From contig CM075995.1 in the NCBI GenBank assembly GCA_038087875.1, forward strand, positions 1,304,001 through 1,368,000: a stretch of DNA of 64,000 nucleotides. The letters run 5' to 3'. A program made the position numbers and the translations under genes. How positions within the stretch are numbered: the stretch's first letter is position 1; the number at the start of each line of letters is the position of its first letter. Under the pieces are notes generated by a model. The model was not told the origin of the DNA and did no database searches. It saw nothing but the letters and a program-made list of their open reading frames with translations. Positions 15,879-63,800 of this stretch are shown here, piece after piece. The stretch is from Malacoraja senta (Eukaryota).

Positions 15879-16231
15879 GTTTAGAGACTACAGTGCGTTG
15901 TGACAAAAATATTATACACCTTGGCCGGAGGCCCTCTCGATTTTGAGGCCCTGGGCTTCAGCCTGCCAAGCCTGTAGGTAAATCCGGCACTGGTCCCGTG
16001 GTCAGGATCGAACCCGGGACTCTGGCGCTGGTTCCATCAAGTGCAGCGACTCCACCGCACTGTGAGCGCAGACACTGAGAGTGGGGAAGAGCTTGGCCCC
16101 CCGCGTACCGCTACTTTTGCAATTATTAAAAACAAAGAAAACAAATGTCGACACAGGTGTTACGCTGAAATTTAAAAAAAAAGAAGAAGAAAAAGCGTGG
16201 CTTACGGAGACGTTGAGGGGATCGATCGATC

Positions 16232-16259
16232 GATGGATGGATGGATGGATGGATGGACG
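16232..16259. repeat. (GATG)n microsatellite
   Basis: gatggatggatggatggatggatggacg read directly from the sequence. Confidence 0.9.
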
Positions 16260-16379
16260 GCTGTTGGGTGGCGGTGCGACCTTGGTGATGGCGGCGGCGG
16301 CGGCGGTTGTGGAAGCGGAAGTGGAAGCGCTCCCAGACCCAGGCCGCTCCGCCCCTCCCCCCCGCGGCAGGAAGTGACG

Positions 16380-16452
16380 CACAGACAGGTCGGAGGTCGG
16401 CGCGTGATGGCGCAGCGCAGTCGGACGACGAGAGAGTGAAACCCCGTCGACG
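16380..16452 (+). other. CDKAL1: Putative non-coding exon 1 of CDKAL1 (start approximate)
   Basis: Consensus donor CG|GTAAGT at 16453, immediately downstream of the promoter motifs and followed by a G-rich intron start. Confidence 0.7.
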
Positions 16453-26887: not shown

Positions 26888-27657
26888 TGATTAGATTTTA
26901 TTCCTTGTCATTTGAACCTCAAAGAGGCTCAAACAAAACTCCGTTTCCACAGCCATACAAACAAAACAATTCCTACACGACACACAAACAATTCAATTTA
27001 CAGAAAACATCTATCACAGTGAATCTCCTCACTGTGATGGAAGGCAAAGTCTTTTCTCTCCCCTGCACCATTTTTCTCCCGATGTTGAAGCCCCAGGCGG
27101 GCAATGTTAAGTCCCACGGCCGAGCCCAAAAGTCACAAAGTTGGAGCCCCCGGCGGGCGCTGGAATGTCCCGCAGCCATTAAAGCCGCGCCGGGCGATTT
27201 ACGGCCCCGCTCCGGGCCGTTCCAACCCCGCGACACGGGCGGGAGAAGTTGCGTTGCGGGAGCTCCGGAAAGCGGTCTCTCACCCGGACCCGCGAGCTCC
27301 CGATATCATAGTCCACGGGTCTGCAGCTGGAGCTGGAGCTCCGGAGTCAGGCCGCAGCAACGAGCCACCACCACTCTCCCACGCTCCGAGGACGGCCAGC
27401 CCCACGATGGTAAGTCCGCAACTCCACAGGCTCCGCGACTGGAGCCCCCAGGTCGTCCCGGTCGGAGGCCGCTTCACGGAGCTAGGCCCCAACGACAACG
27501 GAGACCCGACAGGGAAAAGGTCGGGTCTCCCGTACAGGGAAGAGATTTTAAAAGTTTCCCCCTCCCCCCCCCCCCGCCGCCCCCCACATATACACAATTA
27601 AAAACAGTACAAAAAAACACAAACAACTACATTTAACTAGACAAAAAAAAAAAGAAA
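26888..27657 (-). mobile_element. GC-rich non-coding retroelement with a Rex1-like tail (family also at 39634-40335 and 60040-60845)
   Basis: Interrupts a CR1 fragment. Shares the stem TCCATCACAGTGA...TCACTGTG and the motif GGACTTACCATCG with the other copies. Confidence 0.6.
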
Positions 27658-29233
27658 AGGTCTTGGCCTCTGCAACCCTGTGGCAAAGAATTTCCTAGAT
27701 TCGACACCTGACGAAATAAATTCCTGCTCATCTTGTTTCTAAAAGTAGGTCCTTTTATTCTAAGGCTGTGACCTCTGGTCCTAGACTCTCCATATATACA
27801 TATCTTCATACATATATATATACATACATACATATCTTCATATGTCATAGGGTGTCCAGCACCTCATTGACTAATATGGAGTGTCCTCAAGACATCTCCC
27901 TTAACCTTCCCAAGTCTAATTGTCTTTTCTGCCTTATTAAACAGGAGAAATATTAATTGTGTTATTTTCTACATCACAAGGTTTCTTCAGAACTATGGCA
28001 TTACAGCAGAACTACTTGTATTTTTAAGATAGGTAGGGGATGGTGGTAATGGCAAACTAGAGGGAAGAAGACACCACTGATTGGAGCAATACCAAGGCAA
28101 AGGAAAATGTTAAAGCTTATTGGAGGCCAATCTTCTGGATCATTTCATAGAACAATGAACAGTACAGCAGAGCAGATGGCCAGGCCCTTCGGCCCACAAT
28201 GTTTGTGCCGAACATGATGCCAAGATCAATCTTATCTGCAGGCACACAATCCATATTCCTCCATTCCCTGCATGTTCACATGCTTATGCAAATGTCTTAA
28301 ATACCACCTTCGTATCTACCTTTACCACCACCCCTGCAGCATGTTCCAAGCATTCACCGCCCTCAATGAAAAAACAAAAATAACTTGCTTCTCATATTTC
28401 CATTAAACTTTACCTTTCAAAGTTATATGGCCTCTTGTCATTCCATCCTGGAAAGTATTTTACTTTTCCATTTTATAATCACAGCATCAGCATTCTCTTG
28501 GTTACCATTGAATGGGAAATTAAAGTGGGACTCTGTTAAGTAAATACACTGGCAATAAGTGCAGGTTGGAGCTTGGTGTGCAGTATGTCTGCACTCCTAA
28601 ATCCTTAAATAATTTTGGTCCTCCACAAAACATGTTGTGAGAAATAAAGAGCACATCTCCAATAATACTTTTGAAGGTGGTTTGAAAATATACTCTTTTC
28701 ATCACCGTAAAAGTTAACCTCTTCCATCATGACCATAGTCTATCTACACTGTCTACATTTTGCACTGGACCAGCTTTAAAGCATGTGATTGTACGAATGT
28801 GCACCAATAGGATTTTTGATTTCAGTATTTCACCTCTGCCGAAATATAAAGATAGCAAGTGCATGGGAACATTTTCATTTAAGTTTCCTTCTAAGTTATA
28901 GACCACTTTTTTGGTAATATATCACCATTTCTCCATTGTCACTGAGTGAAAATACTGAAAGTAACAAATACTGATCGTTGCACATTGATATGATCACAAA
29001 CCATTCAAATAGGTAGTTTAATCAACTTTTGCATGTTGAATTTGCACATAAAGGATGTTTTTGTGATTGTATTTATGGTGTTGCTACAACTGATATTATT
29101 AATAGATTATCTTTTTAATGTTAATGTGACCAGAAATAGAAAATTATCTATGTACATTCGGGGGCATTTACTATAACGATTTGAAATTTTGAGTTTAATT
29201 ATTGTTTTCATTACTTTAAAAAAATATTTGCAG

Positions 29234-31705: not shown

Positions 31706-32164
31706 TATTAGTATGTGTAGGAAAGAACTGCAGACGCTGGTTTGCACCGAAGATAGACACAAAATGCTGGAGTAACCCAGCAGGACTGAAGAGTCTGAAG
31801 AAGGGTCTCGACCCGAAACGTCACCCATTCCGTCTCTCCAGAGATGCTGCCTATCCCGCTGAGTTACTCCAGCATTTTGTGTCTATCTTATGCATATTAG
31901 TATTTTGCATACTGATCTCCATATCCTTCTTCTTGGGTTATTAGATTGTTTTTGCTGTTGCCTAATCTTTTTGACATAATCTGATTCAGAGATTAACTTA
32001 ATCTCCACCCATACAACAGTTTTCCCCCCCAAAATAATTGCGTTTGAATTGTCACAATAAATACATGGTCAAGATTGGAGACCATGGACTGAATGTACTT
32101 AGAGCAGAATGGATACAAAATTGGCTAAGTAGCAAATGAGGAGTTAAGGTGGGGGGTTGCTATG

Positions 32165-33098
32165 CAAGGATGCGTACTCAGCCCCTTCTTTACTCCTTAT
32201 ATACCCACAACTGTGCAGCCAAGTACAAATCCAATTTACAAATTCAAAGATGACACCAATGTAGTGGGCTGGATATCAAGTAATGACGAGGCAGACTACA
32301 GGAAGGAGATTGAGAACGTTGTAACCTGATGTCAAGACAACAACCTTTCACTCAATGTCAGCAAGACAAAGGAGATAGTGATGGACTTCAGGAAGTGAAG
32401 TACATACATTGACGGTGCCAAAGTAGAGTTGGTTAAAAGCTTCAAGTTCCAAGGAGTAATTATCACAAGCAACTTGTCCTGGACTAACCATATCAAAACA
32501 ATGGCCAAGAATGCACACCGACACCTCTACTTTCTTAGCAGGCTTGGGAAGGCCAAAGTGTCCCCAACAACTGTCACCAACTTCTTCAAATGCACCCTAG
32601 AAAGCATTTTATCGGGCTGCATCGCAACATGGTTTGGGAACATCTCCATCCAAGACCGCAAGAAATTGCAGAGAATTGTGGACGCAGCCCAGACCATCAC
32701 ACAAACCAACCTCTCTTCCATTGACCATCTACACCACGTGCCTCGGCAAGGCCACAGCCTAATCAAAGACGAGTCTCTCACCCCGTTCACTCCCTCTTCT
32801 CCTCTCTCCCATCAGGCAAGAGGTGCAGAAGTGTGAAAACGCACACCTGCAGATTCAGGGACAGTTCCTTCCCAGCTGTCATCAGGCAACTGAACCATCC
32901 TATCAACAACTAGGGAGCGATCCTGAGCTACCATCTACCTCATGGGAGACCTTTCGATTAACATTAATCGAACTTTACTGGACTTTATTTTGCATTAAAT
33001 GTTATTCGCTTTCTCCTGGACGATTTAATTGTAATCGTATAGTCTTCCTGCTGACTGGATAGCACGCAACTTGGTACAAGTGACAATAAACTAAACTG
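32165..33098 (+). mobile_element. Second, more decayed Rex1-like LINE 3' fragment
   Basis: [11 protein letters not shown] start and VKSFKFQGVIITSNLSWTNH...HLYFLSRL...ESILSGCIATWFGN; tail TGACAATAAACTAAAC. Confidence 0.8.
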
Positions 33099-35507
33099 GA
33101 AGGATGTCATTATGCTGGAAAGAATGCAGAGCTTTACGAGGATGTTGCCATGATTTAAGAGGCTGAGCTATAGGAAGAGGTTGGGCAGGCTACGACTATT
33201 TCTTGGAGTGCAGGAGGATGAGGAATGATTGTACAGAGATGTACAAAATCATGAGAAAAATAGATCGTGTGAATGCACAGTCTTTATCCTAGGGCTGGGG
33301 AATCAGGAAAGCCCATAGTTTAATGTGAGATGGGAAGATTAAATACGACCCTGAAGGGCAAATTTGTCACCTAGAGGGTAGTGGCTATATGGAACAAGCT
33401 GCCAGAGGAGGTAATTGAGGCAGGTACTATAATAGCATTTAAAAGACTCTGGTTCAGGTACATGGATAGGAAAGATTTAGAGGGATATTGGGCCAAATGC
33501 GGGTGGATGTTGGGCCAGGACCGGGCCCGGCTGCTGACTGATCGAGGAGAAGAGAGACATCGGTGAGCGAGCTGGGCTGTCGGCAAGAGTGGAAGGCTGT
33601 CGGAGAGACTTCGCCCACTTGAGTGCCGGCGGTCGGCTGAGGATGGACCCGTGTGAGGCCCGGCGGTCGGTGGTGGACCCGCTGTCGAGAACAAGGAGGA
33701 ACCCAGGGGGGGGGGGCGCCGAGAACAAAGAGGGACCCGGCGTGGAAGGTTGGGGAGATGAAAGCGGGACTATATTGAATATTCTTGTAACTTTGTTGGC
33801 ACCCTTTAGGTGGCGACTCTTACATACTAGTGCTGAAGGCAAACAAAGAATCTCACTATACCTACACGTGACAATAGAGTATCATTCAATCAAATGGGAC
33901 TATCATAGATGGGGCATCTTGATTGACCTACAAATTGGGCTGAAGGCCTCTTCATGCTGTACGACTAAGTGACAGCAAAATTAGAAAACTTTCCACAAGT
34001 ACATGCCCTGCACAGCACTCTTCTCCTTTGTGTGTCATTCCATTGGCATTATCCGTTTACTGAGGCAACAAATGAACGTTTTACTCCCTTCTGTTACAAT
34101 TAGAAGAACATCCTGGTTTAATCGTATTAGTTATAATCACCGCCAAGCAACCATCAGAAAAGGTTGCAAAAGCAATTACTACTCTCAAAAGGGTACGATG
34201 TGAAGCAAACCACCTTATAAACAAAAAATTAAACTGAATAGGTAGTCACAATGAAACTATGTGAATGGCATACTCAAAATCTTGGACGCATGACAGCCAA
34301 CGCCAGCCAGGAGAGTTCTATATTTAACATTTTATAACCAACCCACATGCTTCAACTTTTCAATTTAATCATTTCATTACCAGAGCTTGACCCACAAATG
34401 GCTCCCAGATTCCTTCATCTTTTTTTCTTGCATTTTCAGCTGAATCTTTTCATTCCCAGTCAATGAAGCAGAGTAGGTTTCAGAGTAGGTGGTCAGAGCA
34501 AGACCACTCCCCACCCCATCCCACCACCACCACCACCAACAGCTGATAAAATTTATAACTGGGTTTATTTTCAAGCTGCCAGTCTGATAACAAACAGATG
34601 CTGGGTCAGTCCAACGTAAGCACTTAAAGACACAAGGAGCCCGTTGTCAATGAGAACATGCAAAGGCAAGTTAGAAACGGCACTGTAATGCCATTTCGCC
34701 ATACACTGGTCTCACATTCACCATTCAAGTACATTGTAGGTTAAAATAATCCTGTAATCAAATGCTGCAACAGGATAGCTCACAATGTTGTCACATATCC
34801 CTGACGATGAAGTCAATCCTTGGCTGCATTTTAAAACTGAGATTCCTTTTTGTAACAAATTAACTTTCTCTGTATTCAGGTTAACAAACCAAAATCTACC
34901 TAGTTGATCTTGGCCAAGAATGAATATCTTTAGAATAACTTAAGTGCTCACAAAGCCGACACAGTTGCTTGGTTCTAAATTATGAACATATCTCTCTTCA
35001 TTTTCACTTTTATCATGTTTTTATTCAAAGCTCAGGCTTTGAAAATCCGTCCTATTCCTCTTAAAAAGAATGCCCCAAAATGCCATCAAAGCAATGCATT
35101 TTTTAACCTTTTGCTTTTCATTTACCATTACCATTGGGGTAGTACAGTGGTGCAGCGGTAGAGTTGATGTCTGTACAGAGTTGTAAGTTCTCCCTTGAGT
35201 TCCTCTGGGTGCTCCAGTTTCCTCCCATACTCTAAAGATGTGCATGTTTGTAGGTTAATTGGCTTCTGTAAATTGTTAAGTGTCCATAGTATGTAGGTCA
35301 GCATGGACTTGGTGGGCCGAAGGGCCTGCTTCGATTCTGTATCTCCAAAGTAAAGTAAATTTAACCTACCAATTTTTGTTCCAATCCATGCGAACCAGAC
35401 AAATTTGCAAATTTTGTTGCTTTTTTCCCTTAGTTTGAATTTTCTTTTTTCACATTAACTCTATAAGAGCGATTTAAAAACATTTTTATCTCCAATATAA
35501 TGTTTAA

Positions 35508-37690
35508 GAAGGAACTGCAGATGCTGGAAAATCGAAGGTAGACAAAAATGCTGGAGAAACTCAGCAGGTGAGGCAGCATCTATGGAGCGAAGGAAATAGG
35601 CGACGTTTCGGGTCGAGACCCTTCAGACTAATGTGGGGGTGGGAAGAAGAAAGGAAGAGGTGGAGACAGTGGGCTGTGGGAGAGCTGGGAAGGGGAGGGG
35701 AAAGAAGGAGAAAGCAGGACTACCTAAAATTGGAGATGTCAATGTTCATACCGCTGGGGTGTAAACTACCCAAGCAAAATATGAGGTGCTGCTCCTCCAA
35801 TTTACGGTGAGTCTCACTCTGGCCATTGAGGAGCCCCAGGACAGAAAGGTCGGATTCGGAATGGGAAGGGGAGTTGAAGTGCTGAGCCACCGGGAGATCA
35901 GGTTGGTTATTGCAAACCGAGCAGAGGTGTTGGGCGAAGCAATCGGCAAGCCTACGCTTGGTCTTACCAATGTTGAGCAGCTGACACCTAGAGCAGCGGA
36001 TGCAATAGATAAGGTTGGAGGAGGCGCAGGTGCACCTATAAAGACTGCTTGGGTCCTTGGATGGAGTCAAGGGGGGAGGTAAAGCGATAAGTGTAGCATT
36101 TCCTGCGGTTGCACGGGAAAGTGCCAGGAGAGGGGGTGGTTTGGATGGGAAGTGATAAATTGACCAGGGAGTTACGGTGGGAGCGGTCTCTGCGGGAAGC
36201 AGAAAGGGGAGGAGGTGGGAAGATGTGGCCAGTGGTGGGATCCCGTTGGAGGTGGCGAAAATGTCGGAGGATTATTTGTTGTATGTGACGGCTGGTAGGG
36301 TGGAAGGTGAGGACAAGGGGGACTCTGCCCTTGTCACGAGTGGGGGATGGGGAGTGAAAGCAGAGTTACGGGTATAGAAGAGACCCTGGTGAGAGCCTCA
36401 TCTATAGTAGAAGAGGGGAACCCCGTTCCCGAAAGAATGAGGACATCTCCGATGCCCTGGTGTGGAACACCTCATCCTGGATGTAGATGCGGCGTAGACG
36501 GAGGAATTGGGAATAGGGGATGGAGTCCTTACAGGAAGCAGGGTGGGAAGAAGTGTAGTCCAGATAGCCATGGGATTCAGTGGGTTTATAGTAGATGTCG
36601 GTCAGTAGTCTGTCACCTGCGATGGAGATAGTGAGGTCTAGAAACCGTAGGGAGATGTCGGAAATGGTCCAGGTGTATTTGAGTGCCGGATGCAAGTTTG
36701 TGGTGAAATGGATGAAGTCAGTGAGTTCTGTATGGGTGCAGAAGGTAGCACCAATGCAGTCGTCGATGTAGCGGGGATAGGACCATGGTACGCCTCGAAC
36801 AAGGATTGTTCGACGTACCCTACAAATAGGCAGGCATAGCGAAAAGAGGGAGTCAAACGAAAAGTTGTTAAGGGTAAGGACCAGCTCTGCTAGGCGGAGG
36901 AGAGTATCAGTAGACGGGGATTGGTTGGTTCTGCGGTCGAGGAAGAAACGGAGGGCTTTAAGACCCTCCTGGTGGGGGATGGAGATGTAGAGTGACTGGA
37001 CATCCATGGTGAAGATGAAGGAATGGGTCCTAGAAAACGGAAGTTATGGAGGAGACGAAGAGCGTGTGAGGTGTCTTGAACATAGGTAGGGAGGGATTTA
37101 ACCAGGGGGGATAGGATGGAGTCGAGGTATGTGGAAATATGTTCGGTGGGGCACAAACAGGCAGAAACAATGGGTCTGCCAGGAGAGTCAGGTTTCTGGA
37201 TTTTGGGGAGAAGGCTGGGGAACGATGAGGTTGGAGGCTTGGGAGGGCAAGGAGCCGGAAGTGATGAAGTCAGTGATAGTGTTAAAGCCCTGTCCCACGG
37301 TACGAGTTCATTCCAAGAGCTCTCCCGCGTTTGCCCTGATTCGAACTTGGAGATTTACGGTAATGGCCACTCGTCGGTACTCGGGGCTCTCGTGGACATT
37401 TTCAACATGTTGAAAAATCTTCACGAGTCTTCCCGTACTTACCTGCCATTAGCGGGTCTTCCCGAGTACCTGTCGTTAGCGTTACGAGCCGATAAGAGAC
37501 GTCCCTGAGCTCCAACGTACCCGCTACGTTCATTCTCCGTGCTTACCCCGAGTTTAAAAATAAAAAAACTCGGGAGAGCTCTTGGAATGAACTCGTACCG
37601 TGGGACAGGGCTATTAGAGATAGTGGCCTGGTGCTCGTCTGTGGGGTCATGGTCCAAGGATAAGTAGGAGGAGGTGTCTGAGAGTCCAAT
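35508..37690 (-). mobile_element. Penelope-like element (RT + GIY-YIG endonuclease), disrupted
   Basis: RT motifs MDVQSLYISIPHQEGLKAL and RYIDD, plus LLTDIYYKPTESHGYLDYTSSHP. GIY-YIG region CASSNLIYCIRCSRCQLLNIGKTKRRLADCFAQHL. The terminal repeat at 35508-35630 matches the dispersed mini-elements. Confidence 0.92.
37285..37613. mobile_element. Harbinger/PIF-like MITE inserted into the Penelope element
   Basis: 42-bp perfect inverted repeat (37286-37327 / 37571-37612) and TTA TSD (37282-37284, 37614-37616). Confidence 0.88.
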
Positions 37691-38424
37691 ATTATGTTTG
37701 TGATTTGTGAACTTTTGCTACCCGAATGGCTGTAATGTGGAGGTGCACAGAAGTTGCCAACACGAGATTATTAAATTTGAAGGTGTAGGGAGGAACAGCA
37801 GATGCTGGTTGAACCAAAGACAGATACAAAAAGCTGGTGTAACTCAGCGGGACAGGCAGCATCTCTGGAGAAAAGGAATAGGTGACGTTTCAGGTCGAGA
37901 CCCTTCCCGAAACAACACCTGTTCCTTTTCTCCAGAGATGCTGCCTGACCTGCTGAGTTACTCTATCTTTTTGTTTTTGTCTTTTATTAAGAAATTTGGA
38001 CTTTGATAGGAACATTAAATTGTGAGTAGATGACTGTACAAGACTCTGTGACTAATGACTCAGATATGAGAATTCAAGCCCAGCACAACAGCTGGGGATT
38101 TACATTTGGTCATTTGGATAATTTACCATAATTTGAAATAGTTTGAAGTACTGGTGACCCTGTCACATACAGACTTGTTGTAAACCCCTCTTTCGGGGAA
38201 GGTAAAGAAAATGTGAGGTAAAGTTCATGTTTGTCGACACCAGGTGTTGTTTCGGGAAGGGTCAAGGTAGGCAGTCAGTCGGCTTACAAAAAAAATTTAA
38301 ACCGCGCATGCGCAGATTGTTCTCTCCGTAAAAATATAAAATAAAAATATAAACAGTAACAATTCAATTTGCCCATGGCTTCCTAGTCTCCTTTATTCTT
38401 AATTACTGAATGGGTGGGGGTGAA

Positions 38425-38624
38425 NNNNNNNNNNNNNNNNNNNNNNNNNNNNNNNNNNNNNNNNNNNNNNNNNNNNNNNNNNNNNNNNNNNNNNNNNNNN
38501 NNNNNNNNNNNNNNNNNNNNNNNNNNNNNNNNNNNNNNNNNNNNNNNNNNNNNNNNNNNNNNNNNNNNNNNNNNNNNNNNNNNNNNNNNNNNNNNNNNNN
38601 NNNNNNNNNNNNNNNNNNNNNNNN
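38425..38624. other. Assembly gap (200 N)
   Basis: Run of N bases. Confidence 1.
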
Positions 38625-39633: not shown

Positions 39634-40335
39634 AACAATACAATACAATACAATACTACTTTATTAGCCAAGTATGTTTTGCAACATACGAGGAATTTCA
39701 TTTGCCACACAGTCCTACCAATAAAAAGCAACAGTACACTCAAAATACATTTTAACATAAACATCCACCACAGTGACTCCTCCACATTCCTCACTGTGAT
39801 GGAAGGCGAAAAAAAATTCAATCTCTTCCCTTCTTTGTCCTCCCACGGTCGGGGGCCTCGAGCCTTCCGTTGACGGGATGATCTTGGCTCCCGTAGCCGG
39901 CGGTCGAGCCCTCCTCGTCGGGGCGATCAAGCCCCTGCATCGCGGGGATCTCAGCTCCCCTGCGCCGGGTGATCGACCCCGGGTCAAGGCTGGTCGAACC
40001 TTCTGCGTCGTTGGAGCTTCCCGTCATCGGTCTCTACCCGAGACTGCGAGCTCCTCGATGGTGACATCCGCACCAGGCAAGGGATCGGCTCCGATGGTAA
40101 GTCCACGTCCCCGCGGTGGGGCTCAAAGTCAGTCCCGAGCAAGGCCTCCAGCTCCACGACGTTAGGCCGCAGAGCGACCAGAGATACAATCCGGAAAACA
40201 ATCGCATCTCCGGCAAGGTAAAAAACGGAATAAAAGTTTCCCCCGACCCCCTCCCCCACCCACCACATAAAACAAACCAGAGAACATTAAAACAAATTTA
40301 TAAAACACACTAAAAATAACAAAGAGAAGACAGAC
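39634..40335 (-). mobile_element. GC-rich non-coding retroelement (second family member)
   Basis: Same conserved stem and GGACTTACCATCG motif; tail CATACTTGGCTAATAAA followed by (GTATT)n on the minus strand. Confidence 0.6.
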
Positions 40336-45734: not shown

Positions 45735-48700
45735 TTCAGCCCATCAAATCTAGTCTGCTATTCAATCGTTGCCTGATCTATCTCTCCCTCCTAACCCCAT
45801 TCTCCTGCCTTCTCCACATAACCTCTGACACCTGTACTAATCAAGAATCTATATATCTCTGCCTTAAAAATATCCACTGACAGCCTCCACAGCATTCTGC
45901 GGCAAAGAATTCCACAGATTCACCACCCTCTGAATGATGAAATTTTTCCTCATCTTCCTAAAAGAACATCCTTTAATTCTGAGGCTATGACCTCTACTCC
46001 TAGACTCTCCCACTAGCGGAAACACTCTCTCCACACCCACTCTATCCAAGCCTTTCACTGTTTTGTATGATGAGGTTGGAGGAGGTGCAAGTGAATCTCT
46101 GGCTAGCCTGAGGTAGCAGGCAAGCTATCCGCCCTGCACAAGATAGATATTAAAATACACTTTCTCATCGTGTCCCCGGAGTCTTGTCGGGTGCTGCGTT
46201 GCCCAGTGATGAATGTGTTGCTGTTATTCTAGCCTCCACCACTTGCTGACGGCTTCCAGCAGCCTCGGTCCCTGAGCTCCAGAACTCCCTCCATAATCGT
46301 TTACCTCTTTTGCTCATTCAAGACGTGATATGGAGACGATGTTTCCTCTAGTGGGAGAGTCTAGGACTAGAGATCACAGCCAGAGAATTAAAGGATGTTC
46401 TTTTAAGACGGAGATGAGGAGAAATGTCTTTAGTCGGAGGGTGATGAATCTGTGGAATTCTTTGCCACAGAAGGCAGTGGAGGCCAAGTCAGTGGATAAT
46501 TTTATGGCAGAGATGGTATTAGTTCGGGTGTCAGGGGTTATGGGGAGAAGGCAGGAGAATGAGGTTAGGAGGGAGAGACAGATCAGCCATGATTGAATGG
46601 CAGAGTAGACGATGGGCCGAATGGCCTAATTCTACTCCTGTCGCTTATGACCTTATGACCTAAGGCTTGCCAAAGCCTTTTCCCACTTAGGCGACTCTTT
46701 AGGCAGCTCTCAGGGGTTCACCTACGACACCTGGCTGCAACCTACGACAACTTTTTCTGCAGTTGCCTGTGGTCACCTAAAAAATCGCCTAAGTGGGACA
46801 GGCCCAAGTCTTTCTTTGCTTGTACCAACATCTCCAATGCAGCTCAGACACATTGTATTCGACATGATTTCATGGAGTCAGAGAGTCCAAAGAAACAGGC
46901 CCTTCTGTTCACCACACCCGTTGCTGTCCCATCCACACTAATCCCACTTGCTTGGTTTATAGCCTCCATGGCAGGGCGGCGCGGTGGCGCAGTGGTAGAG
47001 CTGCTGCCTTACAGCACAAGAGACCCAGGTTCGATCATGACTATGGGCGCTGTCTGTATGGAGTTTGTACGTTCTCCCCGTGACCTGCGTGGGTTTTCTC
47101 CGAGATCTTCGGTTCCCTCCCACACTCCAAAGTTGTCCCTTGTGTGTTAATGATAGTGCTGATGTGTGGGAATCTCTGGTCGGCGTGGACTCGGTGGGCC
47201 GAAGGGCCTGTTCCCACACTGCATCTCTAAACTAAACTAAATTAAATTCCTTCCCAGGCGATATCCTGGTGAAGACAAAATGTGCAGAAAGGAACTGCAA
47301 GTGCTGCTTTATTCCGAAGATAGACGCAAAGTGCTGGAGTAACTCACCGGGTCGGGCTGCGTTTCTGGAGGAAAAAAGGATGTGTGACATTTCGGGTCGG
47401 GACCCTTCTTCAGACGGTGAATCTGGTCCTGGTGAAGCCGGTCCTGGTGAATCTCCTCTGCTACCTTCCTTTATTGTGGTGACCAAAACTTCCCGCAATA
47501 CTCCAGCTGTGGCTTAGTCAAAGTTTTATGAAGTTGTACCATAATCTCCCTCCAGTTATATTCCACACCACAGTTAATGAGGACCAGGAGCACTTATTCC
47601 TCTGACCTGAAACGTCACCTGTCCATGTTCTCCAGAGATGCTGCCTGACCCGCTGAGTTGCTCCAGCGCTTTGTGTCTCTTTTCATCACCTGTGCTGCCA
47701 TCTTAGACAATAGACAATAGGTGCAGGAGTAGGCCATTCGGCCCTTTGAGCCAGCACAGCCATTCAATGTCATCATGGCTGATCATCCCCAATCAGTGCC
47801 CCGTTCCTGCCTTCTCCCCATATCCCTGACTCTGCTATCGTTAAGAGCCATATCTAGCTCTCTCTTGAAAGTATCCAGAGAACCGGCCTCCACTGCCCTC
47901 TGAGGCAGAGAATTCCACAGACTCACCACTCTCTGTGAGAAAAAGTGTTTCCTCATCTCTGTTCTAAATGGCTTACCCCTTATTCTGAAACTGTGGTCCC
48001 TGGTTCTGGACTCCCCCAACATCGGGAACATGTTTCCTGCCTCTAGCGTGTCCAAACCCTTAACAATCTTATATGTTTCAATGAGATATCCTCTCATCCT
48101 TTTATACTCCAGAGTGTACAAGCCCAGCCGCTCCATTCTCTCAGCATATGACAGTCCCGCCATCCCGGAAATTAACCTTGTAAGCCTACGCTGCACTCCC
48201 TCAATAGCAATATCTTCAGGGACTTTGAACTGGTACACCAAGTTTCCTCCCTCTCTCAATACTCCCTGGGGTTCTGCTGTTCATAGTGCATGTTCCAACA
48301 GTTTTATACTTCCCAAATGTGTCGCTTATGCTCTGGGATACTTCACTATGTCCAAAATGCGATATAAAAGTAGATTTTTCTTGTGGTAGCAAAGTTTCTG
48401 GCATAAATTGGTAAGTTATCGGAGCAGAATTAGGCCATTGGGCCCATCAAGTCATTCAATCATGGCTGATCAATTTTTCCCACAGCCCCATTCCCCTGCT
48501 TTCGCCCCATAACCTTTGATTTTAGAATTTGGAGATTCAGTGTGGAAACGGGCCCTTCGGCCCACCGAGTCCGTGCTGACAATGATCACCCCTACACTAG
48601 TGTGTAGGAAGGAGCTACAGATGCTGGTTTAAACTGAACATAGACACAAAATGCTGGAGTAACTCAGCGGGACAGGCAACATCTCTGGAGGGAAGGAATG

Positions 48701-51700
48701 GGTAACTTTTCGGGTCGAGACCCTTCTTCAGATCCTTCTTAGGACCCGTACACTAGTTCTATCCTACCCACCAAGAACAATTCAGCCCATCAAATCTACT
48801 CTGCTATTCACTCGTTGGCTGATCTATCTCCCCCTCCTAACCCTATTCTCCTGCCTTCTCCACATAACCTCTGACACCTGTACTAATCAAGAATCTATAT
48901 ATCTCTGCCTTAAAAATATCCACTGACAGCCTCCACAGACTTCTGCGGCAAAGAATTCCACAGATTCACCACCCTCTGAATGAAGAACTTTTTCCTCATC
49001 TTCCTAAAAGAACATCCTTTAATTCTGAGGCTATGACCTTTACTCCTAGACTCTCCCACTAGTGGAAACATCCTCTCCACACCCACTCTATCCAAGCCTT
49101 TCACTGTTTTGTATGATGAGGTTGGAGGAGGTGCAAGTGAATCTCTGGCTAGCCTGAGGTAGCAGGCAAGCTATCCGCCCTGCACAAGATAGATATTAAA
49201 ATACACTTTCTCATCCTGTCCCCGGAGTCTTGTCGGGTGCTGCGTTGCCCAGTGATGAATGAGTAGCTGTTATTCTAGCCTCCACCACTTGCTGACGCGT
49301 TCCAGCAGCCTCGGTCCCTGAGCTCCAGAACTCCCTCCATAATCGTTTACCTCTTTTGCTCATTCAAGACGTGATATGGAGACGATGTTTCCTCTTGTGG
49401 GAGAGTCTAGGACTAGAGATCACAGCCACAGAATTAAAGGATGTTCTTTTAAGACGGAGATGAGGACAAATGTCTTTAGTCGGAGGGTGATGAATCTGTG
49501 GAATTCTTTGCCACAGAAGGCAGTGGAGGCCAAGTCAGTGGATATTTGTATGGCAGAGATGATATCAGTACGGGTGTCAGGGGTTATGGGGAGAAGGCAG
49601 GAGAATGAGGTTAGGAGGGAGAGACAGATCAGCCATGATTGAATGGCAGAGTAGACGATGGGCCGAATGGATTAATTCTACTCCTGTCGCTTATGACCTT
49701 ATGACCTAAGGCTTGCCAAAGCCTTTTCCCACTTAGGCGACTCTTTAGGCAGCTCTCAGGGGTTCACCTACGACACCTGGCTGCAACCTATGACAACTTT
49801 TTCGGCAGTTGCCTGTGGTCACCTAAAAAATCGCCTAAGTGGGACAGGCCCAAGTCTTTCTTTGCTTGTACCAACATCTCCAATGCAGCTCAGACACATT
49901 TTATTCGACATGATTTCATGGAGTCAGAGAGTCCAAAGAAACAGGCCCTTCTGTTCACCACACCCATTGCTGTCCCATCCACACTAATCCCACGGTGGCG
50001 CAGTGGCGCAGTGGTAGAGCTGCTGCCTTACAGCACAAGAGACCCAGGTTCGATCCTGACTATGGGCGCTGTCTGTATGGAGTTTGTACGTTCTCCCCGT
50101 GACCTGCGTGGGTTTTCTCCGAGATCTTCGGTTCCCTCCCACACTCCAAAGTTGTCCCTAGTGTGTTTATGATAGTGCTGATGTGTGGGAATCTCTGGTC
50201 GGCGTGGACTCGGTGGGCCGAAGGGCCTGTTCCCACACTGCATCTCTAAACTAAACTAAATTAAATTCCTTCCCAGGCGATATCCTGGTGAAGACAAAAT
50301 GTGCAGAAAGGAACTGCAAGTGCTGCTTTATTCCGAAGATAGACGCAAAGTGCTGGAGTAACTCACCGGGTCGGGCTGCATTTCTGGAGGAAAAAAGGAT
50401 GCGTGACATTTCGGGTCGGGACCCTTCTTCAGACGGTGAATCTGGTCCTGGTGAAGCCGGTCCTGGTGAATCTCCTCTGCTACCTTCCTTTATTGTGGTG
50501 ACCAAAACTTCCCGCAATACTCCAGCTGTGGCTTAGTCAAAGTTTTATGAAGTTGTACCATAATCTCCCTCCAGTTATATTCCACACCACAGTTAATGAG
50601 GACCAGGAGCACTTATTCCTCTGACCTAAAACGTCACCTATCCATGTTCTCCAGAGATGCTGCCTGACCCGCTGAGTTGCTCCAGCGCTTTGTGCCTCTT
50701 TTCATCACCTGTGCTGCCATCTTAGACAATAGACAATAGGTGCAGGAGTAGGCCATTCGGCCCTTTGAGCCAGCACAGCCATTCAATGTCATCATGGCTG
50801 ATCATCCGCAATCAGTGCCCCGTTCCTGCCTTCTCCCCATATCCCTGACTCCGCTATCTTTAAGAGCCATATCTAGCTCTCTCTTGAAAGTATCCAGAGA
50901 ACCGGCCTCCACTGCCCTCTGAGGCAGAGAATTCCACAGACTCACAACTCTCTGTGAGAAAAAGTGTTTCCTCATCTCTGTTCTAAATGGCTTACCCCTT
51001 ATTCTTAAACTGTGGTCCCTGGTTCTGGACTCCCCCAACATCGGGAACATGTTTCCTGCCTCTAGCGTGTCCAAACCCTTAACAATCTTATATGTTTCAA
51101 TGAGATATCCTCTCATCCTTCTATACTCCAGAGTGTACAAGCCCAGCCGCTCCATTCTCTCAGCATATGACAGTCCCGCCATCCCGGGAATTAACCTTGT
51201 AAGCCTACGCTGCACTCCCTCAATAGCAATATCTTCAGGGACTTTGAACTGGTACACCAAGTTTCCTCCCTCTCTCAATACTTCCTGGAGTTCTGCTGTT
51301 CATAGTGCATGTTCCAACAGTTTTATACTTCCCAAATGTCTCGCTTATGCTCTGGGATACTTCACTATGTCCAAAATGCGATATAAAAGTAGATTTTTCT
51401 TGCGGTAGCAAAGTTTCTGGCATAAATTGGTAAGTTATCGGAGCAGAATTAGGCCATTGGGCCCATCAAGTCATTCAATCATGGCTGATCAATTTTTCCC
51501 TCAGCCCCATTCCCCTGCTTTCGCCCCATAACCTTTGATTTTAGAATTTGGAGATTCAGTGTGGAAACGGGCCCTTCGGCCCACCGAGTTCATGCTGACA
51601 ATGATCACCCCTACACTAGTGTGTAGGAAGGAGCTACAGATGCTGGTTTAAACTGAACATAGACACAAAATGCTGGAGTAACTCAGCGGGACAGGCAACA

Positions 51701-51799
51701 TCTCTGGAGGGAAGGAATGGGTGACTTTTCGGGTCGAGACCCTTCTTCAGATCCTTCTTAGGACCCGTACACTAGTTCTATCCTACCCACCAAGACCAA
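45735..51799. repeat. ~3 kb direct tandem duplication (45735-48780 and 48781-51799)
   Basis: ORF-track pairs offset by 3046 then 3019 bp (46330/49376, 47232/50251, 47783/50802). Scattered substitutions and a net 27-bp length difference near 46945-46980. Confidence 0.92.
46674..46805. mobile_element. Short Harbinger-like MITE (duplicated near 49720-49851)
   Basis: TCCCACTTAGGCGA...TCGCCTAAGTGGGACAGGCCC termini; the TSD is not clean. Confidence 0.6.
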
Positions 51800-53008
51800 T
51801 TTGCAGAAGGCAATTAACCTACAAACCTGCATGTTTATGGAATGTGAAAGGAATCCAGGGCACCCAGAGAAAGCCCACATGCTCACAGGGAGAACATGCA
51901 AACTCCACACAGACAGCACCCATAGTCTGGATCGAACCCAGGTCTCCGGTGCTGTAAGGCAACAACTTTACAGCTGCTTTAGAGAATACAGAAATGGGAT
52001 TGTGTTTGAAACAGAGCTTGGATGAATATTACCCAAATAGAGAATGGAGAATGAGATGAGGAGAGATTTCTTTTGGCAGTGGCTGGCAAATCTGTGGAAT
52101 TCATTGTCGCAGACGGTGATTGAGGCCAAGTTAGTGGGTATTTTTAAACTGGTGAGAGAAATGTCCTTGATTAGTAAGGGCTTCGTTTTAGTTTAGTTTA
52201 GAGATACATCGCAGAAACAGGCCCGTCGGCCCACTGAGTCCACGATCCCCGCACATTAACACTACCCGACACAGACTAGGGACAATTTTACATTTTACAT
52301 TAAGCCAACTAACCTACAAACCTGTACGTCTTTGGAGTGCGGGAGGAAAACGAAGATTTGGGAGAAATCCCACGCAGGTCACGGGGAGAACGTACAAACT
52401 CCGTACAGACAGCACCCGCAGTCAGGATCGAACCCGGGTCTCTGCCGCTGGTTTAAAAGTGTGGAGTGGGTGTAATACGTGATTGCAGATTCACTTTTGG
52501 CATCAGCCTGTCTCGGGCACCATCGGTGAAAAGTAGATTGGAAATTAATGCTGCTATTTTGATGATCCAGTTTTTTTATGGATTAGAGATCAAATATCAG
52601 GAACGAACAGTGTCATACAGCGTGGAAACAGGCCCTTCGGCCCAACTTGCCCACACCGGCACCATGTCCCAGCTACACCCGTCCCACCTGCCTGCATTTG
52701 GCCCATATCCCTCCAAACCTGTCCTATCCATGTACCTGTCTAAATGTTTCTTAAAGATCGCAATAGTACCTGCCTCAACTACCTCCTCCGGCAACTCGTT
52801 CCGTACACCTATCACCTTTTGCATGAAAAAGTTACCCCGCGTGTTCCTATTAAATCTTTCCCCCCTCACCTTAAATCCTCCAGTTCTCGATTCCCCTCCT
52901 CTGGGCAAGAGACTCGGTGCGTCTACCCGATCTATTCCTCTCATGATTTTGCGCACCTCTATACGATCGTAGATATTGTCCAGTGTATTCACGGGCTTAG
53001 AAACTCTA

Positions 53009-59599: not shown

Positions 59600-60035
59600 G
59601 GTGTGAGGATGTTGGCAAGACTGGAGGGCCTGAGGTCTCATGAGAGGTTGCGCAGGCTAGGACTCTATTCCCTGGAGCGCAGGAGGATGAGGGGTGATCT
59701 TATAAAAGTAAACAAAATCATGAGAGGAATAGATCGGGTAGAGTCTCTTGCCCGGAGTAGGTGAATCAAGGACCAGAGGACATAGGTTTAAGGTGAAGGG
59801 GAGAAGATTTAATAGAAATCTGAGGGGTAACCTTTTGACACAAAGTGTGGTGGGTGTAGCTGCCAGAGGAGGTGGTTGAGGCTGGGACTATCCCAACATT
59901 TAAGAAACAGTTAGACAGGCACATGGATAGGTCAAGTTTGCAGGGATATGGACCAAACGCAGGCCGGTGGGACTAGTGTAGCTGGGACATGTTGGTCGGT
60001 GTGGGGAAGTTGGGCTGAAGGGCCTGTTTCCACAC
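59600..60035 (+). mobile_element. CR1 3' fragment. Many others are present, e.g. 1174-1462, 8265-9090, 38705-39540, 47705-48210, 52610-52965, 54800-55115
   Basis: GLYSLERRRMRGDL-type coding remnant and the GGGCTGAAGGGCCTGTTTCCACACTGT tail. Confidence 0.8.
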
Positions 60036-60039
60036 TGTG

Positions 60040-60845
60040 TGCACACTCCGGAAGTGGCGGCGCTGTTAATCGGCTGCGGCTCGCCTGCAGTCCGTCTGTT
60101 TTTACTTTTTTCTGTTGTTTTTTTTTGTCTTGTTTTGTTAAGTTTTCGTTTGTTGGGTTGTGTTAGGGGGGGAGAAACATGTCCTCTGTCTCCTCCTTCG
60201 GGGGAATGCGACTTTTTCGTGTCGTATCCCCCTTCCTTGCCTCCGTCTGCGGTGAGGCCTAATGGCGGGGCTGGCCACCTCCATCCTGCGACCGACCCCG
60301 AGGCTACGGAGGCAGAGCCAGCCAGGACTTACCAACGGGAGGCTGGCCGTCTTCGGGGCTGAGGCAGCGGTGGCCCGACTTGCTGGTGCGGCGTTCTGGC
60401 TTTCGGCGGCAGCCTGGAGCTGATGCAGCGGGGTCCGGAGCGGAGACTGTGGGACCTGGAGCTGGTGCAGCGGGGTCTGGAGCGGAGACTTCGGGACCTG
60501 GAGCTGATGCTGTGGCGGGCCGTCTCGGAGCGGAGACGGCGTTCCGGCTTTCGGCGGCGGCGACATCACCACGGAGGTCCGCTGGACTGGAGGGCGGCAT
60601 CTTCGGCCTGGATCGATCGCCTCAGCACAGAGGGAGAACAAGGAGGGAAGAGACGGAGACTAAGACTTTGCCTCCATCACAGTGAGGGTGTGCTTGGTGA
60701 ACTCACTGTGGTGGATGTTTAATTTGTGTTTATTGTATGTTTTGTTATTATTGGTTCTGTGTATGACTGCAGGCATCACAATTTCGTTCAGACCGAAAGG
60801 TCTGAATGACAATAAAGGAAATCTTGAATCTTGAACTTGAACTTG
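60040..60845 (+). mobile_element. GC-rich non-coding retroelement, apparently full length (third family member)
   Basis: Starts CACTCCGGAAGTGGCGGCGC and has internal 42-bp repeats (60414-60520). Conserved stem at 60673-60715, GAAA hairpin at 60787-60806, tail TGACAATAAAGGAAATCTTGAATCTTGA. Confidence 0.65.
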
Positions 60846-63800
60846 TATGACTCTGTATGTGTGTGTGTGTGTGTGTGTAGAGGGCGTCAGCTCTGGACAG
60901 TTCTCCAGTGCAAAGCTGACTCTATATTCATAAATTCCACTGACTTGCAAACAGCGTTACGTATAGTGAATCAGAGGGGATGCTGTGTTATAATCAAACC
61001 CATTCTCAACCCCCCCACGCCAAAATAAAATCCACTAGAAACAGTTCCCAAAGTCCTGGCATATCCGACGCAACATAATTCCTTTCTTTCTGACTCACTG
61101 AGGCTTCTTCAGCAGCAGCACCCAAATAAACAACCTATCCAGAAGGATAAAAACAGCAAGTTACATTAAAAAAAGATAGACAACAAAATGCTGGAGTAAC
61201 TCAGCGGGACAGGCAGCATCTCTGGAGAGAAGGAATGGGTGATGTTTCGGGTCAAGACCCTTCTTCAAAAAGCATTCTTTCTAAGTCGTGTTCCATGCTG
61301 GTTTATTAAAATAATAGACAATAGACAATAGGTGCAGGAGTAGGCCATTCGGCCCTTTGAGCCAGCACCGCCATTCAATGTGATCATGGCTGATCAGTCA
61401 CAATCAGTAGCCCGTTCCTGCCTTCTCCCCATATCTCTAGACTCCGCTATCTTCAAGAGCCCTATCAGTGGTAAACAAATGATACAAAGTGCTGGAGGAA
61501 CTCAACGGGTCTGGCAGCAACTCGTGTTTATAAGTCATGTGATAGGAGCAGAATTGGGCCATTTGAATTAGAATTTGGCCAGAATTAGGCCATTTAGCCC
61601 ATTATATCAATACCCTGCCATTCAATCATGACTGATCTATCTTTCCCTCGCAACCCCATTCTCCTGCCTTCACCCCATAACCCCATGGCACTCGGAGAGC
61701 GTTTTGGGTCAGGGCTCCACCCTAAAGTGCCTGACCCACTGAGTTACTCCAGCACTTTGTGTCTTCTTTTTTTGTAAACCAGCATCTGCAGTTCCTTGTT
61801 GCTATTTTGTTTGTGAATTTGATACTATGCATTAACGATCACTTTGGGAAGGGAGTTGGTCAGAAAGAAACATTATGGTAGCTTTACGACCTGTAAGTGT
61901 AGAATGTTTACTTGGAACCAAAGAGTCATACAGCATAGAAACAGGCCCTTCAGCCCAGCCTGCCCATGCCAACCAAGAGATCCTATCTAAACTAGACCCA
62001 GTTACCCACAGAAAAAGACACAGTGCTGAAGTAACTCAGTGGGTTACGCAGCATCTCTGGAGAACATGGATGGGTGATGTTTCGGTTTGAGAGTCTGAAG
62101 AAGAGTCTTGACTCGGAACATTGTCTATCCGTATACTCCCGAGATGCTGCCGTATCTGCTGAATTACTCCGGTACTTTGTGTCTAATTTTGTAAACCAGC
62201 TCTGCAGTTCCTTGTTTCCCCATTCACCAATTTACTTTAGTTTGGAGATACAGCGTGGAAACAGGGCCTTGGGCCCTCAGAGTTTGCACCCACCAATGAT
62301 CACTGGTGCTGGCTCGAAGGGCCGAATGGCCTACTCCTGCACCTATTGTCTATTGTCACCCCGTACACTAGTTGTATGTTATCCCAGTTACGCATGCTAC
62401 ACACTAGGGGCAATTTACAGAAGCCAATTAACCTACAAACCTGCGTGACTTTGGAATATGGGAGGAAACCGGAGCACCCGGAAAAACCCATGCGGTCATG
62501 GGGAGAATGTGCAAACTGCACACAGACGGTACCCGTGGTCAGGATTGAACGTCAGTCTCTGGCGCTGTAAGGCAGCGATTCTACCGCTCCGCCACCATGC
62601 CGACTTAATCCATGTTTGACCCATATCTAATATCGAACCTTTCCTAGCATGTACTTGCCCAAATCTCTCTTAAATGTTCTTATGGTACGTACCTCAACTA
62701 CATCCTCCTACCTCTCTGCGAAAAAAAAAATGATCTGAAATATCTCCACGGGTGCTCAGAAATTCCCTTGGCTCAGCTGAAGGGTCTCGTGCCTTTGGTA
62801 CGTCTGACTGCATTGGATACATACAGTAATAAGTACTCACGGAATGCTGGAGTTACTCAGCGGGACAGGCGGCGTCTCTGGAGAGAAGGAACGAGTGACG
62901 TTTTGGGTCGAGACTGAAGAAGGCTCTCGATCTGAAACGTCACCCGTTCCTTCTCTCCAGAGATGCTCCCTGTCCAGCTGAGCTGCTCCAGCATTTTGTG
63001 TCTACCGTCGGTGTAAACCAGCATCTGCAGTTCCTTCCTCCACAGTGTAGTACGTAGTCGTCCCTGATGGAATTAAGCAACTCTCAGCCCGCCATGTTTG
63101 TCAAATAAGCACTTCAAGGTAAATAGGAAGAAAAGTAAATTGCATGCCCCACTGATCTTTGACACCTCTGGAGATGGTAGAGAGTAAATTGTTGTAGGCA
63201 TAAGTTCTTGTTCACATGTAAAATGTTCATGGGGTAAAATGTCCTTTCACACACATGACCAAGCAACTTCCTGTCATGTGACAACCCCTTATGGTCATAA
63301 AGTCATAAGGTCATAAGTGATAGGTGCAGAATTAGGCCATTCGGCCCATCAAGTCTACTCTGCCATTCAATCTCACCCCCAATCTCACCCCCATTCTCCT
63401 GTCTTAGAAACATAGACATAGAAACATAGAAAATAGGTGCAGGAGTAGGCCATTCGGCCCTTCGAGCCTGCACCGCCATTCAATATGATCATGGCTGATC
63501 ATCCAACTCAGTATCCTGTACCTGCCTTCTCTCCATACCCCCTGATCCCTTTAGCCACAAGGGCCACATCTAACTCCCTCTTAAATATAGCCAATGAACT
63601 GGCCTCATTGGCTATATTCAGGTCTTCTCCCCATAACCCCTGAAACCCGTACTGATCAAGAATCTATCAATCTCCTCCACAGCCTTCTGTGGCAATGAAT
63701 TCCACAGATTCAATACCCTCTGACTAAAGACATTTCTCATCTACTTTCTATAGATTCATTTCACTTGCACTTTATAATAACTTGACTTGACCATATGTCA

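Follow-up and report, generated by a model that had tools for sequence, protein, structure and literature searches.

Three GC-rich elements lie in the 64,000-nucleotide stretch of DNA analyzed here (the whole of which we refer to as the window), and they raise the questions of whether they belong to one family, what parts they are built from, and which machinery has copied them.

Three copies of one dispersed element

Self-BLAST shows the window to be repeat-rich vertebrate DNA, and alignment shows that the three elements have one order of modules in common. They are located as follows.

60039–60845, forward strand: the 60k copy, complete, sitting in the 3′ tail of a CR1; positions 60039–60046 are eight extra bases that precede the 5′ boundary of the family.
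26891–27661, reverse strand: the 27k copy, 5′-truncated within the T-rich leader and inserted in a CR1 (hairpin H1 at 27530–27500, conserved motif at 27417–27405, stem S at 27041–27010, tail hairpin at 26933–26911, all on the reverse strand).
39639–40310, reverse strand: the 40k copy, 5′-truncated, with a tail of a different type (hairpin at 39689–39672, then AATAAA and (GTATT)n, reverse strand).

These limits, with the 60k copy starting at 60039 or 60047 depending on whether the extra bases are counted, refine those of the initial annotation, which had described three elements with the same layout, a shared motif, a shared stem with unrelated loops, and divergent bodies; on all four points the description holds. 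The motif GGACTTACCA(T/A)CG occurs exactly three times in the window, once in each element, against a chance mean of 0.09 (allowing up to one mismatch), and none of 100 shuffles reaches three. The pattern of stem S likewise has exactly three matches in the window (chance mean 0.00), with loops of 6, 14 and 15–17 nt, and GGACTTACCAWCG is found three times in the 64 kb, one match per element. When the copies are scored against each other block by block, relative to 100 dinucleotide shuffles, the hairpin block (pairwise z 5.5–6.6), the motif plus 30 nt (4.3–8.8) and the stem S block (7.8–8.5) stand out, the leader scores 0.1–3.9, and the variable middle has 59–64% aligned identity and z values of 0.2–3.5. 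All three elements have a GC content of 53–57% and a CpG observed/expected ratio of 0.87–0.98. The element family is real, and consists of conserved anchors surrounding a divergent middle.

The 60k copy interrupts the 3′ tail of a CR1: CR1 reads and contigs depart from the window at 60038 and resume with bases from 60847 (four runs, 631–839 loose ends per run), the trinucleotide TGT is present at both junctions (60036–60038 and 60844–60846), and the junction motif is read through by five CR1 copies in the window with at most three mismatches. The 27k copy splits another CR1, with a junction motif that is read through by eight window CR1 copies (four mismatches or fewer). On either side of the 40k copy lies one unit of a T-rich direct repeat of 12 bp (40322–40311 and 39638–39627), a candidate target-site duplication. 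The 5′ boundary of the family as a whole is marked by 795 RNA loose ends just before 60047, since their flanks are mixed (agreement 0.32). Both the 27k and the 40k copies start within the T-rich leader, as expected for retrotransposed copies that are truncated at their 5′ ends.

For an estimate of abundance, four of 24 listed sequencing runs (contigs of three species and one RNA run) were compared with 59985–60856 at 80% likeness. Summed contig depth over the head, H1, motif, stem and tail is 0.07–0.29 of that of the adjacent CR1 tail in the three species, and 0.002–0.01 over the tandem-repeat bin that was sampled. Summed contig depth is not copy number, and the single contigs listed have depths of 19–862, mostly below 130, but as a rough guide these values suggest a family of thousands of copies or more. 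The ratio of head to tail contig depth is 0.77, 0.34 and 0.36 in the three species, so that many copies must be full length; this suits a short element better than a long and mostly 5′-truncated LINE, the head of which should be far rarer than its tail. The family is thus multi-copy, dispersed and of fixed structure, with three copies in the window, two of them splitting CR1s, and depth in three species. A scan of viral contigs returned no match to the stem pattern and no Rex1 relative, and five matches to the stem pattern in metagenomes were discarded as unrelated hairpins or repeats, none having a BLAST match to the window.

The ends of the element and the Rex1 LINEs of the window

The two ends of the 60k copy, and the two Rex1 LINEs that the window offers for comparison, are as follows.

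60047–60160, forward strand: Rex1-like head (likeness judged by eye), with a start motif, GCTGCGGCTCG at 60073–60083 and a T-rich leader.
60740–60845, forward strand: Rex1-type tail, with a hairpin at 60787–60806, TGACAATAAA at 60807–60816 and (CTTGAA)n.
22976–25330, forward strand: Rex1 LINE, 5′-truncated and frameshifted, with RVT_1 and PF09004; the partner type for the 60k tail.
32159–33100, forward strand: second Rex1, more divergent and 5′-truncated, with a different tail ending in GTGACAATAAA(CTAAA)n.

The first LINE can be aligned with full-length proteins of Rex1 type (from about residue 230 onward). For its endonuclease part, the relatives ranked highest come from little skate (79%) and a catshark (70%), which points to a cartilaginous fish, likely a ray or skate, as the host of the window; Rex1 coverage in rays is among the highest according to the available part of PMC13343379. 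Over its final 107 nt the 60k copy matches the 3′ end of this LINE (25131–25330) with z = 4.5, above all 200 of 200 shuffles, and the earlier observation that the one tail mirrors the other is therefore correct. Both ends are composed of a hairpin, TGACAATAAA and TCTTGA repeats, and the two hairpins, which differ in sequence, both fold (z −3.3 and −2.7).

Three broader statements about the tails hold in part. First, a Rex1-type tail had been attributed to all of the elements, but those of the 27k and 40k copies have no significant match to either window Rex1 3′ end (z −0.8 to 2.4). Second, each element was said to end in a short-repeat tail, but the 27k copy ends with ATCTAA and runs straight into CR1 without a real repeat tail. 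Third, the tails were thought to have been swapped, and this applies to the 40k copy, the tail of which is of another type (z = 1.4 and 1.6 against the other two) and has no partner in the window, but not to the 60k and 27k tails, which are related to each other (z = 4.2). The 40k tail hairpin is not favored (p = 0.03 in the full-length sense fold, z −1.06 in a 71-nt fold), and across four tails the hairpin is 44% paired but 76% paired with a slide of +2, the structure being out of register with the MAFFT alignment.

At the other end, the 60k copy begins with the ETS-like CCGGAAGTGGCGG at 60048. This had been noted as the start of the complete copy, but it is only one variant, as 862 RNA reads show that other copies have a YY1-type start, CCAAGATGGCGGCGC. 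The sequence CAAGATGGC is described as a YY1 site at the 5′ ends of mammalian L1 in the available part of PMC5381506. In the 60k copy the order is TGGCGGCGC at 60055–60063, then GCTGCGGCTCG 9 nt further on, then the T-rich leader. The set used for comparison was the first 400 nt of about 1,000 CR1-group consensus rows in the supplement of PMC13343379, as far as available. Among 19 little-skate Rex1 consensus sequences in it, 12 start with A(A/G)ATGG(C/T)G, one has a different start, and six, all of them short, begin within the ORF. The sequence AAGATGGCGGCGC has 12 matches in these rows, every one of them at the 5′ end of a Rex1, and in nine of them GC(A/T)GCGGC follows after 7–8 nt, mostly with a T-rich stretch behind it (by eye). 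In layout the head appears to match the 5′ ends of full-length Rex1 elements, with a YY1-type start, GC(A/T)GCGGC and a T-rich stretch, as judged from short motifs compared by eye rather than from an alignment statistic. The YY1-type start is not unique to Rex1, being present in some L2 consensus rows of the same supplement, and the head is kept in only one of the three window copies, the 60k copy.

In Rex1 itself the counterpart of the head region is coding and specifies a protein that starts with Met-Ala and a hydrophobic leader, with MA[APL] in 33 of 48 leaders among 240 proteins. Full-length fish Rex1 proteins (P0062, P0067, P0073, P0078, P0108 and others) have a Met-Ala start, about 20 hydrophobic residues and then Tyr-x-Arg/Lys-x-x-Leu-Leu, an N-terminus resembling a signal peptide, of which our literature search found no account. 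As a separate observation, the first 150 nt of ScyCan_Rex1-3 (supplement of PMC13343379) contain an apparently complete sense 3′ splice site, with TACTAAC, a polypyrimidine tract and CAG.

The non-coding core

The Rex1 similarity of the 60k copy stops near the G-run at 60166. The features beyond this point are listed below.

60166–60198, forward strand: G-run and GAAAC, forming hairpin H0 by predicted pairing with the pyrimidine stretch after it; the pairing varies among copies.
60200–60232, forward strand: hairpin H1, covarying, absent from the initial annotation.
60256–60276, forward strand: possible hairpin H2, GGCC-TA..-GGCC, present in all three copies.
60325–60337, forward strand: conserved motif GGACTTACCA(T/A)CG; the opposite strand reads TG/GTAAGTCC.
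60413–60541, forward strand: GC-rich 42-bp tandem repeat in 2.3–2.9 copies (TRF), in the variable middle, with low contig and read depth.
60628–60667, forward strand: purine-rich stretch before the stem (pairwise z 1.4–4.5).
60673–60715, forward strand: stem S, invariant in sequence with a variable loop (fold z −2.8 to −3.7; loop changes and indels at 60688–60693 in the compared runs).

The elements are 0.67–0.81 kb long and contain neither reverse transcriptase nor endonuclease, whereas an autonomous Rex1 has a single endonuclease-RT ORF of about 3 kb. Pfam finds no family in any of the seven element frames tested, and tblastn of 241 proteins (240 Rex1-type relatives and the endonuclease fragment of the window) against the three elements gives weak matches only (best E 0.002); those to Rex1 proteins are antisense and confined to the 27k copy, and we treat them as chance. 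An open frame of 102 codons does run from the head (60054–60362, forward strand) and has a signal-peptide-like hydrophobic start like that of Rex1 leaders. It has no homolog among longer proteins, no usable Atlas match and two weak matches off its N-terminus, and its comparison with 12 Rex1 N-termini is not significant (0.7 bits, with 125 and 290 of 500 shuffles as high). Since the head frame has no homolog and frames are not kept between copies, we reject a coding role. Rfam returns nothing at gathering score for the three copies (weak and unrelated E-value matches number 4, 0 and 2), and a known RNA or ribozyme identity is rejected on these grounds.

Hairpin H1 has the marks of a selected RNA structure. 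First, four of its 11 pairs are changed on both sides among the three copies, 32 of 33 cells are paired, and only 8 of 500 shuffles score as high; this count comes from three sequences only, with the structure derived from the same three. Second, slid controls have zero or one double-sided pair. Third, its pairing probability is 0.99–1.00 in the full-length sense folds of all three copies. RNA reads also contain an A-U version of one of its G-U pairs, together with loop deletions. Selection of H1 for RNA structure is supported at this sample of three.

Stem S folds but without covariation. Across the three copies 11 of its 13 pairs are invariant, none is changed on both sides, one has a one-sided change and one is broken. 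The proposal that this stem is structurally selected, for which covariation had been named beforehand as the test, is not borne out (0 of 13 pairs), and it is the sequence that is conserved instead. Both stem S and the GGACTTACCA motif may have been selected for sequence, most likely as binding sites. In the arms of stem S, CACAGTG and CACTGTG face each other 8–19 nt apart (27015–27036, 39769–39798 and 60678–60710); such facing pairs occur only these three times in the window, with a chance mean of 0.02. They correspond to the RAG recombination-signal heptamer, but are probably not recombination signals because inspection by eye finds no nonamer at a distance of 12 or 23 nt from them.

Transcription, mobilization and origin

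The RNA data derive from about 6% of the run of a single poly(A) library, made from a related species, in which strand was assigned on the basis of the usual library chemistry. On the inferred sense strand, reads outnumber antisense reads by 15.5:1 at 60075–60104 and 18.9:1 at 60225–60254, compared with ratios of 5.4 for the stem, 2.8 for the tail and 1.8 for the CR1 flank. Relative to contig depth in the same species, RNA at the head is 12 times that at the stem and 27 times that at the tail, although divergent bodies would escape mapping. A few loci may dominate the signal, as groups of 851–1069 reads have an agreement of 0.74–0.87. The head-heavy and sense-biased RNA fits a promoter at the head; however, many head reads extend into the upstream flanks and there is no pile-up of read starts at the head in this run, so that read-through could also account for it.

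We think it probable that the family is a bipartite non-autonomous LINE (SIDE) of about 0.7–0.8 kb, with a Rex1-like 5′ end of about 110 nt, a non-coding core of about 550 nt and a Rex1-type 3′ end of about 105 nt; Pol II would transcribe it, and the Rex1 protein would copy it in trans. The GC- and CpG-rich core would replace the ORF, and comprises the G-run, H0–H2, the GGACTTACCA motif, variable tandem repeats, the purine stretch and stem S. The initial annotation had proposed a SINE-like passenger family, and in being non-coding, multi-copy and furnished with a Rex1-type tail the elements agree with it; since the head appears Rex1-like, however, the class of bipartite non-autonomous LINEs, here with a foreign core, suits them better than that of SINE-like families with an unknown head. 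Membership of the SIDE class is likely, in that the elements have no coding capacity, are multi-copy, and have a LINE-homologous 3′ end, directly in the 60k copy though not in the 27k and 40k copies.

Mobilization would begin with Pol II transcription from an internal promoter in the YY1/ETS-type head, aided by the CpG-rich core, of which the sense-biased poly(A) reads may be a product. Rex1 protein made by an autonomous copy would then recognize the 3′ hairpin and repeats and carry out target-primed reverse transcription, as the tail match and known stringent LINE-SINE pairs suggest. The outcome would be dispersed insertions, full-length and 5′-truncated, with short or no target duplication, as is seen for the three copies. 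Lineages would subsequently have drifted to about 60% identity in the middle with the anchors kept, and at least one lineage, represented by the 40k copy, would have acquired a different LINE tail, perhaps by template switching.

Could the core be Rex1-derived as well? The family would then be a plain internal-deletion derivative with nothing foreign in it, and the source of the entire element would be a single Rex1 lineage of elasmobranchs whose N-terminal linker was long and GC-rich or whose 3′ UTR was long and structured. Long GC-rich repeated stretches do follow the leader in LeuEri_Rex1-7, LeuEri_Rex1-15 and ScyCan_Rex1-3 (consensus rows as above), and the depth of the stem and tail is 2–3-fold above that of the head in two of three species. 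Furthermore TACCATCG, a part of the motif, corresponds to Tyr-His-Arg codons at the ORF start of the stingray consensus rows HypSab_Rex1-11 and -7, but this match spans only 8 nt. We consider such an origin unlikely, as five core motifs (GGACTTACCA, CCATCACAGTGA, GTCGGGTCTCC, TCACTGTGGTGG and GACTTTGCCT) have no match in the first 400 nt of the CR1-group consensus rows, the tblastn resemblance to Rex1 proteins is confined to the weak antisense matches in one copy, and stem S is missing from the 3′ UTRs of both window Rex1 copies, which are the two covered by the comparison of core and stem. A 17-nt identity between 60299–60315 and the consensus row LeuEri_Rex1-8 was set aside, most of the family depth having another base at 60306.

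The GGACTTACCA motif may represent a splice donor on the antisense strand, a remnant of the Tyr-x-Arg codons of Rex1, or a binding site. If the conserved words were splicing signals, the motif would supply an antisense 5′ donor (TG/GTAAGT) and the 5′ arm of stem S would hide a sense 3′ splice site (pyrimidines-CAG), and the element would act as an exon trap or alternative first exon; this is compatible with the bipartite LINE but in our view quite unlikely. The full donor word is kept in all three copies (three of the 11 occurrences of GGTAAGT in the window are within the elements), and the raw RNA depth in the poly(A) library is 4–9-fold higher at the head than at the stem and tail. Against this, the invariant bases of the motif reach past the donor consensus, and ACTTACC cannot serve as a mark of Rex1 either, as its 50 matches in the available consensus rows include CR1, L2, Rex1 and other rows among the 24 listed. 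No RNA joints are present among the 15 of 50 rows listed, and antisense depth does not rise on the exon side of 60330; given the lack of joints and of an antisense step in the reads, a putative sequence-specific binding site is favored with low confidence.

It is improbable that the family is a Sadhu- or EhSINE-like retroposon with only its tail derived from a LINE, the head and core coming from a host CpG-island promoter or non-coding RNA and the Rex1-like start being convergent. ETS- and YY1-like words are indeed present at a host CpG island near 16300–16455, the protein test of the head frame is not significant, and GGAAGTGGCGG of the 60k copy has no match in the first 400 nt of the available CR1-group consensus rows. 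However, three features stand in Rex1 order and at near-Rex1 spacing exactly at the 5′ boundary of the family. A conventional Pol III SINE with a tRNA, 5S, 7SL or snRNA head, or three unrelated sequences alike by chance as the low identity of leaders and middles might suggest, is scarcely credible and already contradicted by anchor motifs far beyond chance, by the high depth of the family, and by the structure of its head. A tRNA search of the elements finds none, and the earlier statement that A and B boxes are lacking stands: no B box is found in the three copies, and an A box is missing from both the 60k and the 27k copy, the sole A-box match (40k copy) falling in its G-run. All three copies have T-runs of 5–11 within their first 90 nt, and Pol III stops at T-runs of such length. 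Because of these early T-runs and the lack of a small-RNA head, full-length Pol III transcription is unlikely, and the elements are probably not Pol III transcripts.

As a probable bipartite non-autonomous LINE, the family most resembles elements described from other clades, the following comparisons being with the available parts of the papers cited. The lepidopteran SIDE Persaeus, partnered by the CR1-group LINE Zenon, has a LINE 5′ end, a variable center without obvious LINE similarity, a LINE 3′ end and a high copy number (PMC6740152). It differs in its partner (Zenon rather than Rex1) and in its noted lengths of 271–352 bp rather than 0.7–0.8 kb (PMC6740152), and the family described here has conserved structured anchors and a tandem repeat in its core, and one copy with a different tail. 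Bov-A, RTESINE, RIME, NARTc and the Vingi and R2 derivatives have likewise kept the LINE 5′ and 3′ ends and lost the ORF, and are probably transcribed by Pol II, but unlike the present family they have little or no foreign middle; exchange of tails is described for SINEs derived from bipartite non-autonomous LINEs (PMC5786205). That account covers the RTE, Ingi, Vingi and R2 clades only, with Rex1 unmentioned in its available part.

Sadhu and EhSINE1 may be regarded as looser analogs. Sadhu of Arabidopsis is long and non-coding, with members less than 75% identical, a shared 5′ motif, a polypyrimidine stretch, no small-RNA head and sense transcription, but it has a poly(A) tail and target duplications of 7–16 bp, is present in 39 copies, and has no LINE known as its partner (PMC2848041), in contrast to the hairpin-repeat tail and LINE-like head of this family. 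EhSINE1 of Entamoeba histolytica is 500–600 bp long, with no small-RNA precursor, internal tandem repeats, an overlap of about 70 bp with its LINE, and polyadenylated transcripts; it belongs to another host and another LINE clade, and no covarying GC-rich core is described for it in the available text (PMC2996970). HE1 V-SINE/HER1 and SacSINE1, both of sharks and rays, and the pair SINE2-5_NV/Rex1-24_NV come from the same host group or involve the same partner clade and have LINE-derived tails, but HE1 V-SINE, SacSINE1 and SINE2-5_NV are all tRNA-headed (PMC3747384), unlike this family. The family is also unmentioned in the available parts of PMC7245038 and PMC6274825. A literature search found no description of this family or of a Rex1-derived element of such a kind; a repeat so abundant may well be held in Repbase or Dfam under an automatic name. 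Primate SVA, also a composite non-autonomous element transcribed by Pol II with a GC-rich variable tandem repeat in its middle, differs in being mobilized by L1, in its poly(A) tail and in being made of Alu and ERV parts.

The ORF-less bipartite LINEs on record belong to RTE, Ingi, Vingi and R2 (PMC5786205) or to the CR1-group Zenon (PMC6740152), as far as the available parts of these papers go, and a Rex1-based one in a vertebrate would add a clade. With a contig depth that is roughly one tenth or more of that of the neighboring CR1 tail, the family is relevant to the annotation of ray genomes, and its conserved structured middle and exchanged tail make it a natural test case for the idea that bipartite LINEs give rise to SINE bodies. 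Should the head prove to be a functional promoter, the copies would supply dispersed CpG-island promoters and may act as mobile promoters. We tentatively suggest, while regarding it as a doubtful extension, that the core of the family could be to Pol II elements what the conserved body domains are to SINEs: a structured RNA of long standing, kept across lineages only about 60% alike, which would have moved from one LINE tail to another behind a promoter head from Rex1 and seeded thousands of active CpG-island promoters or first exons in ray genomes.

Several other features of the window deserve mention. Self-BLAST pairs at an offset of 3019 bp (about 46400–49400 against 49450–52400) point to an apparent tandem duplication, either real or an artefact of assembly, and a run of 200 N bases occupies 38425–38624. 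A GC-richer, coding-like repeat at about 35700–37700 (reverse strand), presumably a Penelope-type element from its resemblance to these, is interrupted near 37290–37610 by a short element with long inverted ends. Finally, a CpG island with GGAAGTG words lies at 16000–16460 on the forward strand (GC 0.58, CpG observed/expected 1.13), where a likely first exon ends at a GTAAGT donor near 16453 and is followed by (GTAA)n; a host gene probably starts at this position, and the downstream copies would then lie in or near its transcript.
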